Source of the DNA: a virus | Taxonomy: Duplodnaviria; Heunggongvirae; Uroviricota; Caudoviricetes | Reading direction: 5' to 3' (one strand) | DNA length: 7,254 bases | IMG/VR virus record: IMGVR_UViG_2778261509_000007 | Shown here: piece after piece, positions 1 to 7,254 of the stretch | Layout of the letters: each line of letters begins with the position of its first letter | Position numbering within the stretch: the first letter of the stretch is position 1 | Notes under the pieces: generated by a model | What the model was told of the DNA's origin: nothing | The model's database searches: none | Seen by the model: only the letters and a program-made list of their open reading frames with translations | Made by a program: the position numbers and the translations under genes

Positions 1-115
1 AGAAAAAATAACGTTCACCACCGACCTCTGTCAGATCGATTTCCCAGAGCACCACCTGGGCTGACTGAGTGAGGCGTGTCGTCTCATGATGTGTTTCCTG
101 TGGAATATCCTGCAT
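1..115 (-). CDS. L: Minor tail protein L (lambda gpL-like), N-terminal 38 codons only; gene continues past the window start
   Basis: Minus-strand translation from ATG at 115..113 gives [38 protein letters not shown], open to position 1. This closely matches the lambda gpL N-terminus as I recall it (MQDIRQETLNECTRAEQSASVVLWEIDLTEVGGERYFF). The ATG shares one base with the TGA stop of M (TGATG), and the position after M matches lambda gene order. Not in the ORF track because it is truncated. Confidence 0.85.
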   Translation of the reverse strand, partial: MQDIPQETHHETTRLTQSAQVVLWEIDLTEVGGERYFF

Positions 116-453
116 CAAATCACCACTTCGTCAAACTGACACGAAAAATCGGTATAGGTGATATGTTCTGTCGCTGACCACGTTCGACACACCACTCTGA
201 TTTTTCTGTTAATACCCGGCGGGCGCCAAAAAAAAGATTTATAGCCTCCATGCCGAACTAGAAACAGTTCAAATGAATTACGTTCATTCGCCTCAACCCT
301 GAAATCACAGGTAAAAACACGCAGAGCATGATTAAGTCCGTTTGGGCTTCGTTGTTCATAACCATCGCCAAATCTTACAGTTTTTATCGATGGCTTATTT
401 TCTGTTTTCATTCCATCCTCTGGTAACCAGTAAAATTCTTCCGTATTAGCCAC
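115..453 (-). CDS. M: Minor tail protein M (lambda gpM-like), 112 aa
   Basis: ORF-track protein contains [10 protein letters not shown]...[12 protein letters not shown]...[12 protein letters not shown]...FDEVV, colinear with recalled lambda gpM (FRWKVKPGMD...VRFGDGYSQRAP...HGGWKSFLWTPP...FEQVV). GTG start at 453 with GGAGG about 8 nt upstream; overlaps the tape measure stop by 8 nt. Confidence 0.85.
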
Positions 454-3400
454 TTAACATTCCTCCATCACGGCGCATATTTAACAGAGTGCCCTGCACC
501 CGCTGATCAACCATCCCCATAAGTGCTTTTATTGCCTGAGGACCAATCTCTCCATTCTGGCCGTCATTTTGAATAGTGATTTGGTATACAGGTGCATAGG
601 TAATATCTCTGCCTCCATTACCACTTTTACTATTAATAGCTCTGACACCAAGAGAACCATCGGAAGTTCGCGTTAATGGCATAATAGCTTCCGGTCCAGC
701 CTCGCCAAAAACACCAGCTCCTTTTGCAAAAGCAAAAAATTGTGGGGAGTCATAAATACCGTTCGAATATGTACTCAATGACGGAGACTCATACACACCG
801 CCCTTTGCATTCGGAATAAATTTACTAATAGCACTCCCGATAGTTCCTAAAATCCCACCAGAAGAACTGTTATCAATGCTGTCGAAAATCCCAGTAATTG
901 AAGCCTTTAATGCAATTCGACTAAGATCCGAAATCACGGAAGTAGCGAAAGAACGAAAATTTGCCTTGCCTGTCGTGACAAAATCACCTAGCGCATCGGT
1001 CATCCCATCAAACATCTGAGTCGTGGTTGATTTTATCTGCGCACCGATATCCTTAGTGTCATCCAGCCAGTTATTGAATCCCTGGGAGGCACCACTAATC
1101 CAGTCTCCTGCCTGAATATCGAGCTGCTCGTTTTTCTGGCTGACAATTTCTTTTTCTCGTTCCAGAGCATCATTCAGAGCCTGCATTTTCTCCTGAAAAA
1201 CATGATTTGACATTCCACGGGATTTATCTGCATAGTCACGTTCAAGTTGCAGACGCTGATTGTTATATTCACGTTCAATCCGCAGTAATTCCTGCTGGCG
1301 TTGCTGATTTTTATCGCCAAACCCATAACCAGCAATCTGAATGTCATACCCCTGTTGACGATTATCAATCGAAGCCTGCAATGAATCACGCCATGCAGCT
1401 ATTTCGGCGGATTCATTGATTAGCCTGTTATTTTTTTCAATCGCAACATTTTTCTCCATCAACGCAGTTATTTCTTCCCGGTGTAAGAGAAGCGATTTCT
1501 GATCCTGGGTTAATTTCGATGACGGTCGTGACTCCAGGTCGGCAATCTGCTGACGCCACTTAACCAGTTCCTGTTCAGAGGAACTTAATTTAACGGTCAA
1601 TTCAGCTTGTGAACTTAGTAACGCATTCTGTTGATTCAGATGATCAATCATTCGTTGGGCAGCATCATCCGAATAACCTTTCGCCTTTGGTTGCTTTGGT
1701 TCTTTATAACGCTCATTTATTTGAGCGATAAGATTATTATATTCTTCCTTTGAATACTGATTCTTTAGCTTTTCCAGTTTTGCAAGTTCACTAGCTCTCT
1801 GCTGCTCCCGGGTTTGATATTGTTTTGAAAAAGCATCTGCTCTCTGTCTGAGTTCAATTCCTTCCTGTTGTCGCTTGTTGTAATCGTTTATTGATGAATT
1901 TAGTACGTCCTGAGCAATTTTTTCTGCTTGAAGTACGCCCAATTGCTGCTTTAATCGTGCCAGCTTTTTATTTTGAGCTCCGCCATCTCCAACGCCACCT
2001 AACCCGAAAACTCCGGGTCGGGTATTTTTTTCTATTTCATCAATTTGACGGAGAACATCTGAGATTTTTTGATCAAGGGAGGCCTCACGGCCAATATCCA
2101 GCATGGAATCCCATGCCCATTTTGCGGAGTCTGCGACAGCTTTCCATGCAGTCTCAAGATAACCAAGATTTTCTTTAATCTGGCTGGAACGTTGAATCAT
2201 TGAGGATGAATATGCTTCCGTCGCAATACGAGCAGCCTCCTGCTGGTTCCCTTCATCCTGTAGCGCCTTAATCTGGTTATAAGTCGCAAGTGTCAGAAAA
2301 TGGTACTGATCATTAAGTTTTGATATAGCACTGACAGGATCCTTTGCAATTTCATTGAAGTCATTAACCAGTTGTTCGGTTGATATTCCTGTTACTTCGC
2401 TCGTTTTTACTATCGCTGTCGTCACTTGCTCCAGCGAACTGCTCGCTACCTTTCCCGAACGCACAAGCTGTTTTAATACTACCGCCGCAGCGCCAGTTGT
2501 CGAATCAGCCGCATTCCCGGCACGTTGAGCTATATCGGCCAATTGCCCGCTGGTTGTCCCCAACTGATTTCCGGTAAGAATAAGAGATTTATTAAATTCG
2601 TCCTGCTCCTGAGAGCCTTTATAGTAAGCCAGCCCTAAGACGCCAACGGCTGCTGCGGCCAGGGTAAAAGGATTAATTAATCCCAGCACATAAGAACCTA
2701 CACCTTTGATCGCCGGGCCAATCCCACCGAACATATCTTTTAGCTGGCCGCCCTGCTGCATTAACACCATAAATGGCGACTGACCAGTGGACAACCCAAC
2801 AACAATATCCGTCATTTGTGCAGGCAACATGCGCATAGCAAAAGCCGTTTGTTTTGCCGACATTCCGGTTTTGCTTAATTGCGATTGAGTAACCTCAAGC
2901 TCACTCCGCATAGCACGAAGTTTTCCAGAAAGCTCCTCATACATTTCAGGAGAAAGCATCCCCTTAGCTTTTGCTTCATTGAGCTGTTTCTGTTGTTCTA
3001 CCAGACGATTAAAAGCAGTTCCGACAGGATCAAGTTGAGCAATCAGACGTTGCAAAGCAGCAACCTGTTCATCATGCGCTTTTGCTGCTTCTCGCTCTGC
3101 CTGAGCCTCTCCGGTAAGCTCTCGCCGTGTTTCCTGTATTTTTCGGCTATAATTCTCAAACTGAGAACCATTTATTTTCCCGGATGCAAACGCAGCATTA
3201 AGTTCATCCTGCTGTTGTTCAAGATGTCTTAGCGCCGCAGCCAGAGGGTCGATCTTGTCCAGCATTCTTTGAAAGGCCTGAGCCTGCGCTTCCTGCTGGG
3301 CGGCAGCAAGTTTTCCGGCCTTCTCGGCTTCTCTCTGCGCTTGCGCAACCCCGCTCAATTCCGCTGTAGTTTCATTAAGTTTACGGGAAAGAAATTCATA

Positions 3401-3679
3401 TTCTTCTTTATGAATAAGCCCTTTGTCGAAGTATTTCTTTAATTCAGAATAGCGCCGACCGACAGTATCAATTGCGGCACCAACAGGATCAATAGCTGCT
3501 TTTAATTTTGCGAGCGCGTTCTTCTCATCTTCTGTTGCCCTAGTCACTTTCCCTGCGCTATTTGCAGCAGTTGCCCCAGCCTGCGTCATTTTGACCAGGG
3601 AGGAGGTCAAATTATCAGCATTATTTTTCGCTCCAGTGCTATCAATAATTATTGCAAGACGTGAAGTTTGCTCTGTCAT
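446..3679 (-). CDS. H: Tail length tape measure protein (lambda gpH-like), 1077 aa
   Basis: Long ORF with a coiled-coil-rich N-terminus. Central segment [39 protein letters not shown] and C-terminus [16 protein letters not shown]...[10 protein letters not shown] match recalled lambda gpH ([39 protein letters not shown]; NNDGTNGQIGPAALKAV...MRDGGLFSG). ATG at 3679 with GGAG 7 nt upstream. Position between chaperone genes and M is as in lambda. Confidence 0.9.
2885..3523 (-). repeat. Three diverged tandem repeats of about 73-80 codons inside the N-terminal coiled-coil region of the tape measure gene
   Basis: Protein-level repeats anchored on recurring motifs: [24 protein letters not shown] (res 57-80), [24 protein letters not shown] (res 137-160), [25 protein letters not shown] (res 209-233). 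Each is followed by a G-x-(I/L)-xxxx-(F/Y)-xxx-S-(R/G)-K-(L/I)-xxx-(R/T)-x-EL segment and an AQAxREA stretch. The DNA is diverged, so this is not a recent duplication. Boundaries are approximate. Confidence 0.6.
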
Positions 3680-3694
3680 TTAGTTGCTCCGGAC

Positions 3695-3722
3695 AAAAAA
3701 AGCCCCGCTTAGAAAGCGGGGC
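3695..3722 (-). terminator. Rho-independent terminator downstream of the Ail/Lom-like gene, just upstream of the tape measure RBS
   Basis: Perfect 8-bp GC-rich stem (3702..3709 gccccgct pairs with 3715..3722 agcggggc), 5-nt loop, then on the minus strand a run of 7 T (3701..3695). It lies 23 nt after the TGA of the OMP gene. There is no T-run on the plus-strand side, so it is unidirectional. Confidence 0.6.
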
Positions 3723-3745
3723 CAGACAACAGAAGAAAGGAATTA

Positions 3746-4282
3746 TCAGAAACGATAACCAATACCGGTCATCCAGGTACCAACTTTCACATCGCCCAAT
3801 TTGGTGTACTCATAGGATGCGTCAACTACCCAATTTGGTACAGGATTAAACTGAATACCAGCACCATATACAACCGAAGTCTTGCTTAAAGAGTCAGAGT
3901 ATCCCAAAATCGTCGCTTCAGCACGTCCATGCGCTAAACCTATTAAGCCATATGCACTGAAGTAATCATTGAAACGATAGGCTGGACCGGCAGCTAGTGA
4001 ATAGTAATCCAGTTTTTCATTTCCAATTTTAGAGCCTGCAAAATGATAATCGTATTCTTGATGTGTGTACGTAAATGAAGATGCAACGCCCCATTTATCA
4101 TCCAGCTCATATCGATACTTAATATTTACCCCGGAAGGATTCTCATCAAGGCTTTCTCCAGCGACTTTAACATGACTTTGTGCATAACCTAGAGAAATAG
4201 TATTCTGCATCAATTCAGCATTTGCAATGCCAGTTGCAAACAAGGCTGAAGCGATAATGGTAGTCAACACTGCTTTTTTCAT
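3746..4282 (-). CDS. Ail/Lom/PagC/OmpX-family outer membrane beta-barrel protein, 178 aa (moron, candidate virulence / lysogenic-conversion factor)
   Basis: N-terminal Sec signal peptide MKKAVLTTIIASALFATGIANA with an AxA cleavage motif. Motifs SLGYAQSHVK, NIKYRYELDDKWGV, KTSVVYGAGIQFNPVPNWVVDASYEYTKL...VGTWMTGIGYRF are colinear with the Yersinia Ail / Salmonella PagC / lambda Lom family as I recall it. C-terminal aromatic residue is typical of OM beta-barrels. ATG at 4282 with a GGTGA-like SD; TGA stop at 3746. Confidence 0.85.
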   Translation of the reverse strand: MKKAVLTTIIASALFATGIANAELMQNTISLGYAQSHVKVAGESLDENPSGVNIKYRYELDDKWGVASSFTYTHQEYDYHFAGSKIGNEKLDYYSLAAGPAYRFNDYFSAYGLIGLAHGRAEATILGYSDSLSKTSVVYGAGIQFNPVPNWVVDASYEYTKLGDVKVGTWMTGIGYRF

Positions 4283-4342
4283 AAAATCACCGCTATTTCA
4301 CAAATCATTGTTATAACAGCCAGAATTAATCTGGCTGGCAGC

Positions 4343-4372
4343 ATTAAAATATCGACCACATTTTATAGTCAA
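4343..4372 (-). promoter_or_regulatory. Putative sigma70-type promoter for the Ail/Lom-like gene
   Basis: On the minus strand: TTGACT (4372..4367), 18-bp spacer, TTTAAT (4348..4343), about 60 nt upstream of the ATG, within a strongly AT-rich 143-bp intergenic region. Found by eye only, not statistically tested. Confidence 0.25.
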
Positions 4373-4425
4373 CTATCAATTTCACATAAAACTATGTACA
4401 TACAATTAATTGCCAAAGCATAAAA

Positions 4426-5216
4426 TTAATTAATCAATATCCCATCAAAAGTTTTGGATTGAGAAACATACTGGTCATCCAGCGCAAAGATCACTGCTTC
4501 AAATTCATCACTATCTATCAATATTGGGTGTGCTTTTAAATAGTCGTGTATGTCAGATATTGACAAAGGCAGCGGAACCCCGGACATGCCTGCATAACGC
4601 CTAGAACGAGACATTACTGAATACGCATACAATAACTCACGGACAACGGGGTCTATTTCTGGCTCCAGGAGCGGCGGCAACCTGAGTTTTTCTCGCTTCC
4701 ATCTTGCCTTTTCACCCTTTTCTCCCCCGAACTCAGATAACCACCGCTGGGCAGCTATGGCTTTTTTATCGTATCCTGCTTCTGCTGCTCTTTTCCCTGG
4801 GCGATGCTAGCTGCTTCTGCAAGGAGCTGCCAGTACAACTCTGGATTCTGCTTAAGCAGCGCGATCCCTCGTTCTGGCGTATATTCCAGTACAACCTCAA
4901 CACCATCAACCAGTTCACCAACCCCTTTCCAGTCTTTCAGCAGATAACGAGCCGCATTATCAATGAGTAAATCATCAACAGAATCCACCTCGGAAACCTT
5001 TGAAATATCAAACTCCTTCGTTCCGACGTGCAAACTGGCATCCATTTTCTCAATGTGGCGACGGATTAATGCATTACGGGAGCGATACTGATCGTTATCG
5101 CTGCTTGCCACCAACAGTTTTAACCCGTCTACAGGTTTTAAGTCCTTCATTGGCGTAAACCAGCGTTCTCCACTGATGATAATTTTCTGATTAAGAATAA
5201 ACATCCATAACCTCAT
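4426..5216 (-). CDS. Tail assembly chaperone G-T fusion made by a programmed -1 ribosomal frameshift at 4767..4761 (about 262 aa); the 84-aa ORF 4426..4680 is its C-terminal part
   Basis: The frame of ORF 4426..4680 is -1 relative to G (codon first positions are 0 vs 2 mod 3 on the minus strand). I translated the -1 frame from the slippery site (KKAIAAQRWLSEFGGEKGEKARWKREKLRLPPLLEPE...) and found it open with no stop down to the TAA at 4428..4426. The TTG start at 4680 given by the ORF track is an artefact of ORF calling. Confidence 0.55.
4755..5216 (-). CDS. Tail assembly chaperone (gpG-like by position and frameshift architecture), 153 aa; real start may be the ATG at 5204
   Basis: ORF sits immediately after the major tail gene and before the tape-measure region, as G does in lambda. 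It ends with ...DTIKKP* with the slippery heptamer two codons before the stop. No sequence similarity to lambda gpG that I can recognise, so the call is by synteny plus frameshift signal. The ATG at 5204 (M5) has a GAGG SD 6 nt upstream. Confidence 0.6.
   Translation of the reverse strand: MRLWMFILNQKIIISGERWFTPMKDLKPVDGLKLLVASSDNDQYRSRNALIRRHIEKMDASLHVGTKEFDISKVSEVDSVDDLLIDNAARYLLKDWKGVGELVDGVEVVLEYTPERGIALLKQNPELYWQLLAEAASIAQGKEQQKQDTIKKP
4761..4767 (-). other. Slippery heptanucleotide A_AAA_AAG (X_XXY_YYZ) for -1 programmed frameshifting
   Basis: Minus-strand sequence ATA AAA AAG CCA TAG in the G frame; the heptamer A AAA AAG is the same as the well-characterised dnaX slippery site and is positioned like the lambda G-T site, two codons before the G stop. 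Confidence 0.55.
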
Positions 5217-5224
5217 TCAATGCG

Positions 5225-5253
5225 TCCCCCTGTAGTTCAGTACCACAGGGGGA
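5225..5253 (-). other. Intergenic stem-loop (9-bp perfect stem, 11-nt loop) between the major tail gene and the chaperone gene
   Basis: 5225..5233 tccccctgt is the exact reverse complement of 5245..5253 acaggggga. In the mRNA the 3' arm (ACAGGGGGA) contains the purine-rich SD-like element 8 nt upstream of the ATG at 5216. No T-run follows, so it is not a canonical intrinsic terminator. Confidence 0.35.
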
Positions 5254-5264
5254 ATAACGGAAAA

Positions 5265-6227
5265 TCAACTAATCGCCTCAGCACTGGCTTTTGCGATCAC
5301 GGCAGCCGGGGAGTTTTTTTTTCTGGTTATCGTAGGTGCTTCATCTGCTGCGGTAATGCTCAATTGAACCTGGATAATGTCGGTATTCCCCCCATCAGGC
5401 CATTCACCTGACACCTGAACCTTCGGGAAACTGAAAGTGTATGCCCCCTCTCCATTCGAAAGCGTGAAGCTGAACGGAACTGTTTCTCCAGTCAGTGTTT
5501 TACTCCAGATTTCCCACGCGGATTTAGACCACGAAAGCGTCACCGTACCGGACGGTGTAAAAGTAGTCGGAATATTTGCTCCTGCATAAGGCGAGCCAGT
5601 CCCGATACAACGCTGTGTCTGGAGTTTGTTATCGAACTGAATATCAAAACTGTCGATACAAAAACCGTTACCTCCGGCAACACCATTCAGGCTTACCGCT
5701 GAAACCTCCTTAAACGAATAGCGTAGCTTTCCTGCACTATCCACAGGTTCGCCTTTGATAAAATTCGTATCATCGGCCTTTGATTCCCAGTCCAGCCCGG
5801 CAAAGGTTACGGTCGCTGTAATATCGCCGTCGTTAGGGATCTGCATTTTCCATGAGCCAACCTGCGCTCCTCTGACGACAGAGGCAATTCCGACATCGGA
5901 CGCATAGGTCGCCAGAGAAAATGTTATTCGCTCATTCCCCATTGTCAGAGAATCGCCTGACCATTCCGCGCCGAAACAGGATGCAAGAAAATCATCATGT
6001 TGACCCCAGCGAAATTTGGTACCGACATCACCGCCGACATCCACAGTGCCAGACGTCGCCCCCTGAGCCATCCGGGAGCCGCCGATCTCATTATTTTCGC
6101 CTTTATTCTGGGTGGGTTTTACTCCCCAGCTTGTGCGTTTTAATAAACTCCAGTCACCACTTGCTGGCGTGGTGCCTGCAACTGTCTCCCGGATAAATGC
6201 CGAGATAACCTTTGCACCTGAACTCAC
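5265..6227 (-). CDS. Major tail (tube) protein, 320 aa (assigned by position)
   Basis: ORF lies between the tail-terminator-like gene and the G/G-T chaperone pair, the canonical major tail protein slot. GTG start at 6227 with GGAGG 5 nt upstream; TGA stop at 5265. It does not resemble lambda gpV as I recall it, so the call rests on synteny and size. Confidence 0.55.
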   Translation of the reverse strand: MSSGAKVISAFIRETVAGTTPASGDWSLLKRTSWGVKPTQNKGENNEIGGSRMAQGATSGTVDVGGDVGTKFRWGQHDDFLASCFGAEWSGDSLTMGNERITFSLATYASDVGIASVVRGAQVGSWKMQIPNDGDITATVTFAGLDWESKADDTNFIKGEPVDSAGKLRYSFKEVSAVSLNGVAGGNGFCIDSFDIQFDNKLQTQRCIGTGSPYAGANIPTTFTPSGTVTLSWSKSAWEIWSKTLTGETVPFSFTLSNGEGAYTFSFPKVQVSGEWPDGGNTDIIQVQLSITAADEAPTITRKKNSPAAVIAKASAEAIS

Positions 6228-6253
6228 AGGAGCCTCCTATGTCATTAATTGCG

Positions 6254-6646
6254 CTAGAGCGCGCGATATGGAATTTGAAGATTAAGCTGGAACCAGCCAT
6301 TCTTTTCGCCAACGGCTATTGAGGAAACAGCCTGGTAACTGAGACGATCGTCATCCTGAAACTCAAACAGTTCCCGCAATTTATCGGCTGTCTCAGTAAT
6401 GAGTTTTGAACCAGAACCTGCGGGGACAAATAACTGAATAATGATTATCCCCGTGCGATAAACAACCGGCCCCGCGCCAATTTCATTAACTCCAGCCTGC
6501 CCGGGAATATTACTTAACCGCGCCCAGATTAACTTACCGGAAGGATCGAACGTTGGCCCGTTCGGATACAATACGTCTTTTCCATCAATAATCGTCTGTG
6601 CCGTCATTCTGGAAATAACCGTATTTCTGATTTCAGTAAACGTCAT
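6254..6646 (-). CDS. Tail terminator-like protein (functional analogue of lambda gpU by position and size), 130 aa
   Basis: 130-aa ORF immediately upstream of the major tail gene (lambda gpU is about 131 aa and occupies the same slot). ATG at 6646 overlaps the stop of the preceding gene (ATGA). Only weak recognisable sequence similarity to lambda U, so the call is by synteny. Confidence 0.45.
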   Translation of the reverse strand: MTFTEIRNTVISRMTAQTIIDGKDVLYPNGPTFDPSGKLIWARLSNIPGQAGVNEIGAGPVVYRTGIIIIQLFVPAGSGSKLITETADKLRELFEFQDDDRLSYQAVSSIAVGEKNGWFQLNLQIPYRAL

Positions 6647-7023
6647 TTGTAAGCCTGTAAAACACCATGAAAAGCGTTGGCATACACGCCAGTTGGCGCT
6701 TGTTGTGAATGACCGTTTTCAAGAGCCTCTGCATAAGGAAGGTTATTCTGGATATAAATAACCCCGTAATTTGCAGCTTTCGAAATAACCCCGATCCCAC
6801 GCTGAACAGCAATCGTACCGTTCGGATCCACGTTATCAGATATACCAAAATCGGGATGCTGTAACGACACCAGGTTGTTATTTCTGAAACGTCCGGTATC
6901 AACCGGAGCAGCAATATCAATAGCAGTAAGAATCTGAATAGCGATGTAGCGAATCTTCAGCCCTACATCTTCCTCAATCATCCCGGCAAATATTGACGGT
7001 TCTATATCCCATGCCTTTGCCAT
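6643..7023 (-). CDS. HK97 gp10-family tail completion / head-tail joining protein, 126 aa
   Basis: Contains the motif PVDTGRFRNNN that I associate with the HK97 gp10 family (D-T-G-R-L/F-R signature). ATG at 7023 preceded by AAGGAG; stop overlaps the next gene start (ATGA at 6646..6643). Sits in the lambda gpZ-equivalent slot. Confidence 0.55.
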   Translation of the reverse strand: MAKAWDIEPSIFAGMIEEDVGLKIRYIAIQILTAIDIAAPVDTGRFRNNNLVSLQHPDFGISDNVDPNGTIAVQRGIGVISKAANYGVIYIQNNLPYAEALENGHSQQAPTGVYANAFHGVLQAYK

Positions 7024-7254
7024 TTACGCTCTCCTTAACTGGATAGAGTAAACTGATGCGGAAGGATCTACACTTGCTGTAATTACCTCGTATCGTTGTA
7101 ACTGCCTTGATACAGGATCATAAATCTCAATAATATGGTCGACAGCTGGTTTATCCGTAACCTCGCATACCAGAGCGGTTAATTTAAGGTCACCATGCAG
7201 GTAATGCTGCCAACTTACTGATTTAGTGTATGATGGTGATTTTAAGGTGCTTGC
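7024..7254 (-). CDS. C-terminal 76 codons of an upstream head-tail joining / head closure protein (partial; start lies beyond the window end)
   Basis: Minus-strand frame is open from 7254 down to the TAA at 7026..7024 (...LHGDLKLTALVCEVTDKPAVDHIIEIYDPVSRQLQRYEVITASVDPSASVYSIQLRRA*). The stop abuts the ATG of the gp10-family gene (TAAATG). Function inferred only from position; not in the ORF track because there is no start in the window. Confidence 0.35.
   Translation of the reverse strand, partial: ASTLKSPSYTKSVSWQHYLHGDLKLTALVCEVTDKPAVDHIIEIYDPVSRQLQRYEVITASVDPSASVYSIQLRRA

Follow-up and report, generated by a model that had tools for sequence, protein, structure and literature searches.

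Three paralogous helical modules precede the core of a lambda-type tape measure protein in a Rac-like Escherichia coli prophage

We analysed a stretch of 7,254 nucleotides (the window) from a virus of the class Caudoviricetes, IMG/VR record IMGVR_UViG_2778261509_000007. The window is an E. coli prophage sequence of the Rac-like type, and its minus-strand genes form a siphovirus tail module. The subject of this report is the gene for the tape measure protein (TMP) at 446-3679, which encodes 1077 amino acids, and in particular an array of three related units near the N-terminus of the protein. All genes and protein features of the window given below are on the minus strand. The protein begins with a conserved leader (residues 1-51, positions 3527-3679), which is the upstream anchor of the array and is the same in relatives with 1, 2, 3 and 4 units. 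The leader is followed by unit A (residues 52-130, 79 residues, positions 3290-3526) with an IDP motif at 63-65, unit B (residues 131-203, 73 residues, positions 3071-3289) with IDP at 143-145, and unit C (residues 204-277, 74 residues, positions 2849-3070) with LDP at 216-218. Unit C abuts and overlaps the start of the TMP_2 core. The hidden Markov model (HMM) matches of the units cover residues 52-123 (E = 1.5e-30), 131-203 (E = 1.8e-33) and 204-277 (E = 3.6e-32), and these three places are the sole significant matches of the unit HMMs within the protein.

An earlier note on this DNA had described three tandem diverged copies of a 73-80-residue unit. Positions 2885-3523 do encode residues 53-265 of the 1077-residue open reading frame (ORF), as given there, and the observation of a triplicated N-terminal module is confirmed with two small corrections. 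The [I/L]DP motifs are located at residues 63, 143 and 216, with spacings of 80 and 73 residues, however the third one is LDP and not IDP. Similarly, a G-x-[IL]-xxx(x)-[FY] segment recurs in all three units as described, while the AQAxREA segment is present in the first two units only. Aligned locally in pairs with BLOSUM62, the units score 125, 91 and 104, compared with means of about 27 (standard deviation about 5) for shuffled sequences, i.e. z = 19, 13 and 15, and none of 2000 composition-preserving shuffles attained the observed scores. With z values of 13-19 and HMM E-values of 1e-30 to 1e-33 the three copies are well established. Their alignment has 81 columns with 13 invariant positions, including the D-P and a glycine. 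Three stretches of the array match the PHROG TMP profile phrog_24. Residues 1-266 have no Pfam or NCBIfam model, and just sub-threshold matches to coiled-coil regions of SMC and Rad50 were obtained there. Two further candidate units were rejected. A match midway along the TMP (residues 637-656), which might have been a fourth, degenerate unit, is not significant, E = 0.32, and a match at residues 412-440 of lambda gpH has E = 0.002 in hmmsearch, which is a single-sequence test, but E = 0.11 and a probability of 0.5% in hhalign.

After the array, the protein contains a TMP_2 domain at residues 267-471 (2267-2881; PF06791, E = 2.3e-81, 272.9 bits with a cut-off of 30.2), a TMP_4 domain at 671-748 (1436-1669; PF24622, E = 1.9e-24) and a Tape_meas_lam_C domain at 858-932 (884-1108; PF09718, E = 1.9e-25, 89.2 bits with a cut-off of 23). 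TIGR01541 matches residues 705-1040 with 220.2 bits, the cut-off being 104.75. In every sequence-level respect the protein is a member of the lambda-type TMP family, and the assignment made in the earlier note holds, with TMP_2, TMP_4 and Tape_meas_lam_C domains present and TIGR01541 above its cut-off. Lambda gpH (853 residues; PDB 8IYK/8K35) belongs to the same family and has the same three Pfam domains and the same gene position, after a G/GT-type chaperone pair and before the gpM homologue. According to BLASTP, residues 57-850 of gpH align with residues 270-1077 of the TMP at 29% identity. The two proteins differ at the N-terminus, where gpH has no unit and 56 residues precede the core, compared with 269 here. 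The excess of about 220 residues over gpH that had been noticed before is 224, and since the alignment starts at residue 270, 213 of these precede the core that the two proteins share. The array thus accounts for nearly all of the excess, and the lambda-like core does begin only after it: similarity to gpH starts at residue 270 and TMP_2 at 267, and the AMRMLPAQ segment begins at residue 281, the position given earlier. The TMP of phage T1, gp38 (957 residues, PDB 9L9P), has a TMP_2-type core and one copy of the module at residues 62-139 (E = 1.7e-7), whereas the window protein has three. The T1 tail has about 34 rings with a 42-Angstrom rise, and only residues 921-956 of gp38 are resolved, so the module has no experimental structure (PMC11945409).

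We modelled residues 1-340 as a monomer with AlphaFold2, using 26 aligned homologues. The model is helical throughout residues 50-271, with breaks at the conserved D-P and at a glycine loop in each unit. The predicted local distance difference test (pLDDT) score is 66-86 over most of the array and 57-66 at the junction of units B and C, with an overall mean of 62. A Foldseek search of this model, whose confidence is modest, against the PDB gave no match below E = 0.3 and generic helical bundles only. The hydrophobicity of 477 distinct units aligned to the unit profile has a power of 45.6 at period 3.5, compared with 0.9 at period 3.6. Because the period-3.5 signal spans the whole 73-residue unit, the heptad phase is continuous through the D-P kink. 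In each unit, columns 44 and 47 of the profile are conserved aromatics (Y/F), and the D-P falls at columns 14-15 and the glycine at column 37. The label "coiled-coil module", which the unit had received from its sequence, is borne out by the predicted helices at 50-271 together with the heptad power, and is a fair one as far as the model goes, with the caveat that the predicted helices are segmented.

We searched 1.84 billion representative proteins with a profile built from 18 diverse units. At E <= 1e-3 there are 641 matching proteins, and at E <= 1e-10 there are 211. Among 143 listed matches that we examined, most have a TMP_2 core or are TMP fragments, and about 15 are longer proteins (804-3481 residues) without the core. 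Counting the units before the core in the listed representatives at 50% identity (at least 800 residues and a TMP_2 core), 64 proteins have one unit, 19 have two, ten have three, four have four and one has five; in these listed TMP_2 proteins the last unit ends at the start of the core. The length of the protein follows this number. With one unit, and the same leader and core, the core starts at residue 117 and the proteins have 924-960 residues; this unit is of its own type. Two-unit proteins with this leader and core, for example P0049 and P0233, have units of types A and C and a core starting at about 211-217 (P0233 has 1078 residues). For the three-unit class (A, B and C) and the four-unit class (with an extra B-type paralogue), both with the same leader and core, the core starts at 270 and at 343 or 350, and the lengths are 1069-1171 and 1192-1240 residues, respectively. 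The part from the core onwards is about 810-830 residues across the classes. The total length therefore tracks the number of units, without compensating loss elsewhere. When total length is regressed on the number of units across all representatives, the result is confounded by very long outliers and a crude filter for complete C-termini, and the class ranges are more informative. In a four-unit relative from Enterobacter, a gene resembling HNH/NUMOD4 homing endonucleases separates the terminator and tube genes and runs on the opposite strand (L003 3211-3825, L004 2003-2617), and the tube protein there has an extra Big_2 domain (390 residues).

The units of the window protein are 33-39% identical to each other in protein sequence and 42-47% identical in codon-aligned DNA, and the longest word they share is 10 nucleotides. 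A tree of units taken from 23 proteins groups the units of three-unit proteins by position across genera, so that first, middle and last units form types A, B and C. Unit C falls among the last units of relatives, together with the one unit of a Pseudomonas TMP. Unit B clusters with the middle units, and the extra unit of the four-unit proteins is a B-type paralogue. Each of the three units has positional orthologues in TMPs of Escherichia, Citrobacter, Klebsiella and Salmonella. As A, B and C cluster by position across genera, the duplications predate the divergence of these enterobacterial TMPs. Judged by this tree, the triplication is old and common to a large enterobacterial clade, and it is neither recent nor private to this phage. 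The proposal that the protein diverged from lambda by module duplication is right in outline, but the recency read into it was overstated, given that the units have positional orthologues.

A natural comparison is offered by a Citrobacter braakii prophage locus (L002), which has the same gene order, including the Ail/Lom gene, and a one-unit TMP of 924 residues (P0136). The proteins encoded at the two loci are 91% (tail completion), 93% (terminator), 92% (tube), 78% (chaperone) and 84% (gpM-like) identical. Over residues 281-1077 the two TMPs are about 85-100% identical in each block of 40 residues (about 90% for the core), while residues 41-280 have no sensible alignment. The same is seen in the DNA. 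According to blastn, the window is homologous to the Citrobacter locus at 1-2881 (85.7%) and 3562-3823 (77.7%), with nothing at 2882-3561. This mosaic block, which encodes residues ~40-266, has homologous flanks on both sides and nearly coincides with the interval 2885-3523 flagged earlier; a second, separate gap corresponds to the Ail/Lom gene. Since the DNA homology breaks at the borders of the array, between conserved anchors, the array is a discrete mosaic cassette and behaves as a swappable one. From these alignments, close relatives look as if they differ by exchange of the array in one piece and not by slippage of units. The comparison also implies that the same types of tube, terminator and chaperone work with rulers that differ by 153 residues. 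The Citrobacter Ail/Lom gene is at the same site as in the window, is 57% identical and forms a mosaic block of its own. We considered whether the chaperone and the array had been replaced together at this locus, and rejected it: the DNA map has two separate blocks, Ail/Lom and array, with the TMP leader conserved between them.

The window is covered to at least 80% in 682 of 5426 complete E. coli genomes. Positions 1-7199 are 100% identical to 1622593-1629791 of E. coli RM10740 (NZ_CP043821). A 1.2-kb query (window 2600-3800) spanning the leader, the array and the start of the core matched 1073 E. coli genomes. At least 80% of the query is covered in 1059 of them, and the identity is 95-99% in 1045. 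No copy-number polymorphism is evident among the 1073 genomes at the resolution of query coverage, the number of units not being checked genome by genome. The only in-frame variants of the array that we saw are two rare E. coli proteins, P0108 and P0172, which have lost 25 and 37 residues, respectively. The deletions map to residues 254-285 and 195-242 of the window protein, and their ends match direct repeats of nine nucleotides (TGCTATGCG) and eight nucleotides (GCAAAAGC) in the window DNA. Deletion ends at such 8-9-nucleotide repeats, judged on the window DNA, argue for slippage at microhomology and not for recombination between units.

It had also been suggested that the tandem repeats are a substrate for further expansion or contraction. 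This part of the note found no support: at most 10 nucleotides in a row are identical between units, and 1059 of the 1073 genomes cover at least 80% of the query that spans the array. Tandem Repeats Finder detected no DNA repeat in the array, and a search for repeated words gave only words of at most 13 nucleotides. As the array has no usable DNA repeat, homologous recombination unit by unit within the gene is unlikely, and the idea of a recombination-prone repeat substrate is not supported.

In E. coli K-12 the corresponding gene is ynaA of the Rac prophage. It is 96.5% identical in nucleotides over query positions 96-1056 (window 2745-3705), a stretch that includes all three units. K-12 Rac, with ydaY (of the chaperone family), ynaA and Ail/Lom remnants, resembles the window in gene order, and stfR is also present in Rac. 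The two genes differ in that K-12 ynaA breaks off at about codon 311 and carries the annotation that its C-terminus is missing, while the window gene is intact and encodes 1077 residues. Given the 96.5% identity to the truncated ynaA, the gene in the window is the Rac-type tail ruler in its intact form. In the Rac prophage of MG1655 (L005 3197-6560), ynaA represents the 5' third of a TMP gene, ending just past the array, and is followed by Ail/Lom fragments that are split by an element resembling the insertion sequence (IS) IS5. Several genomes of porcine enterotoxigenic E. coli (ETEC), such as ETEC1717 (NZ_CP122876), carry the same TMP gene split by IS1 and annotated as two TMP fragments plus an IS1 transposase.

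The other genes of the tail module flank the TMP gene on both sides. Upstream are a tail completion protein (6643-7023), a tail terminator (6254-6646) and a tail tube protein of 320 residues (5265-6227), which belongs to the Phage_tube_2 family (PF18906, E = 4.4e-31). In the Pfam scan the tube protein matches no lambda gpV family. This protein is the polymer whose length the TMP would set. It is followed by a tail assembly chaperone of 153 residues (4755-5216), the gpG analogue of the YdaY family (phrog_313 "tail assembly chaperone", E = 2.9e-46), whose orthologue in the Citrobacter locus carries Pfam Phage_YdaY. An extension in the -1 frame, the gpT analogue, has an ORF of 84 residues at 4426-4680 in a frame that is open from 4806; it was found by frame analysis and has weak matches to Pfam Phage_TAC_18 and to phrog_1189. 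The chaperone ORF overlaps this -1 frame, and two candidate slippery heptamers are in phase, G_GGA_AAA (4791-4797) and A_AAA_AAG (4761-4767), which could yield a frameshift fusion of the G-T type; the RNA downstream of the heptamers has no notable structure (z = +1.0). Directly downstream of the TMP gene is a gpM-like minor tail protein (115-453; Phage_min_tail, E = 2.3e-30). The TMP gene is thus located between a frameshift-type chaperone pair and a gpM-type gene, with an Ail/Lom gene intervening on the chaperone side. The latter (3746-4282, 178 residues) encodes an outer-membrane beta-barrel with a signal peptide and lies in a low-GC stretch (0.35-0.41). In lambda, lom is located after J. 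At the end of the window, positions 7200-7254 are an IS1-like terminal sequence (GGTAATGCTGCCAACTTACTGATTTAGTG...), which we take to be from IS1, as many of the E. coli matches are annotated. It truncates the gene upstream of the tail completion gene, leaving the C-terminal 58 codons, homologous to residues 70-127 of a 127-residue protein of the Citrobacter locus. The prophage of the source strain is probably disrupted by this IS1 end at window position 7200 and defective.

What could such an array do? In lambda, the C-terminus of gpH is in the tail tip and the remainder fills the lumen of the tube (PMC10721106), and the T1 protein is arranged likewise (PMC11945409). gpH is reported to form a trimer at the tip (PMC10721106) and to be present in six copies in the tube (PMC12617516). 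The length of the lambda tail follows that of gpH (Katsura and Hendrix 1984, as cited in PMC13585406). In TP901-1, deleting or duplicating the N-terminal part of the TMP changed the tail length by about 30% for a change of 29% in residues (PMC5099701). We consider it likely, with a probability of about 0.72, that the three paralogous helical heptad modules of about 73 residues, placed between the leader of about 50 residues and the TMP_2 core, serve as an extra piece of ruler and that they arose by old duplications combined with cassette swaps. While the tube grows, the TMP would lie stretched out in its lumen, the C-terminus held in the tip, and polymerisation would stop at the N-terminal end, so that each added module would lengthen the tail. 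We infer that the array is extended in the tube and adds to the tail in proportion to its length. The three units descend from ancient duplications and are by now position-specific, with A first, B in the middle and C last. Copy number, from 0 to 5, would shift mainly via duplication of B-type units and via exchange of the entire array, a mosaic cassette with its anchors in the leader and the core.

The size of the effect can be estimated in several ways. If fully extended, each added module would contribute about 11 nm, or about 2.5-3 tube rings. At 0.15 nm per residue, the value used in the earlier note to predict a tail tens of nanometres longer than that of lambda, the 224 extra residues would give about 34 nm. 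Lambda has 853 residues and 32 rings (PMC10721106) and T1 has 957 residues and about 34 rings (PMC11945409). From these ratios of residues to rings, 1077 residues would correspond to 38-40 rings, 6-8 more than in lambda, or 25-35 nm. On these estimates a tail about 25-35 nm longer than that of lambda is plausible. Compared with the one-unit Citrobacter sibling, which has nearly the same tube, terminator and TMP core, the tail would be about five rings (about 23 nm) longer.

Several observations weigh against the proposed ruler function or the numbers attached to it. T1 has about two more rings than lambda for 104 more residues, where about 3.7 would be expected at 0.15 nm per residue and a rise of 4.2 nm (PMC11945409, PMC10721106). 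The ring counts of lambda and T1 suggest that N-terminal additions contribute fewer nanometres per residue than 0.15. The tube protein in the window is of a different family from gpV, so the lambda-based numbers are ones that we infer for this tail. The monomer model is modest (mean pLDDT 62) and has no three-dimensional match. In that model the conserved DP and G break the helices, so the module could be doubled back into a hairpin or a bundle, each residue then adding less than 0.15 nm. The near-identical GenBank "phages" (vB_EcoS-..., 97% identical) are predicted prophages, and the only paper found for them, which describes prophages detected in genomes of clinical isolates, has no tail measurements. 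Lastly, because the IS1 end cuts the prophage of the source strain at 7200, tails may not be made by that strain at all.

The units could instead be mainly repeated docking sites for the tail assembly chaperone (the YdaY/gpG-like protein and its frameshift product) that coats the TMP, in which case the copy number would tune chaperone loading instead of, or besides, tail length. We regard this as improbable, although several features fit it: each unit has the conserved Y/F columns 44 and 47 and a fixed hydrophobic stripe, the chaperone gene is just upstream, and periodic aromatic residues in TMP repeats have been discussed as possible chaperone contacts in the TP901-1 study (PMC5099701). In that same study, however, a repeat could be replaced by alanines with infectivity unaffected (PMC5099701). 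Among the loci compared here, the same chaperone type (78% identical) serves both one-unit and three-unit TMPs, and the array block is a mosaic segment separate from the chaperone genes. Docking is moreover compatible with a ruler function, and hence more an addition to it than a rival.

Somewhat less probable still is an array that is not counted in the tail length, because it folds back, sits in the terminator or neck, or acts after ejection, for example in a longer conduit across the envelope; the tail would then be no longer than those of one-unit relatives. The helix breaks at the conserved DP and G would agree with this, and so would the step from lambda to T1, which amounts to about 0.08 nm per added residue and not 0.15 (PMC10721106, PMC11945409). 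In addition, once the head has joined, gpH* reportedly travels down the tube, and TMPs have a part in crossing the envelope (PMC12617516). Yet over its whole 73 residues the unit holds its heptad phase, the DP kink included, as a continuous coiled coil would, TMP length tracks the number of units with nothing lost elsewhere, and TP901-1 tails became proportionally longer when the N-terminal TMP region was duplicated (PMC5099701). Finally, the repeat might reflect convergence between low-complexity coiled-coil segments rich in A, E, Q, K and L, and not homology. The weak matches to unrelated coiled-coil proteins, SMC and Rad50, are what this would predict, but the probability is very small and the data already contradict it: the composition-preserving shuffles never come near the observed scores, landmarks that do not belong to a coiled coil (the D-P, the G and the aromatics) recur in register, and among the matches listed the unit profile finds mostly TMP_2 proteins or TMP fragments.

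Taking the array as an extra piece of ruler, it is comparable to the TMP repeats of TP901-1 and mycobacteriophages, which are likewise internal repeats in a helical ruler. There, repeats of 11 or 18 residues with Trp/Phe are duplicated or lost, which alters TMP length and, experimentally, tail length (PMC5099701, PMC3271669), and repeats that vary TMP length are already well known (PMC5099701, PMC3271669, PMC13585406). The module described here differs from the TP901-1-type repeats in its unit of 73-80 residues, in its period of 3.5 and not 3.67 (11/3), and in having no Trp. Furthermore, its array is N-terminal, before the core, ancient and position-specific, and without repetition at the DNA level. 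Our literature searches, which were not aimed at the module specifically, returned no description of it.

In long-tailed phages a protein ruler sets the length of the tail, and that internal repeats can alter the ruler's length is established. The contribution of this study is descriptive and leaves the current understanding of tail length control unchanged. The array is an ordinary but clear case of a change in phage ruler length. It defines a specific 73-residue helical module, which has no Pfam or NCBIfam model and which occurs in 0 (lambda) to 5 copies in the lambda/T1/Rac tape measure family. We put forward, tentatively and as a doubtful extension, that tails of the lambda/T1/Rac type use the heptad module as a discrete unit of length that can be exchanged. 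Whole arrays of 0-5 units would be swapped, via the conserved leader and TMP_2 anchors, between tail gene sets that are nearly identical in other respects, giving stepwise tail classes that differ by about 11 nm per unit and that would be selected to match the thickness of the host surface (capsule, O-antigen depth). The three-unit E. coli prophage and the one-unit Citrobacter prophage form a natural matched pair, which would permit a direct measurement of the nanometres per residue contributed by N-terminal additions to the ruler. For E. coli K-12, the comparison clarifies the former nature of the pseudogene ynaA.

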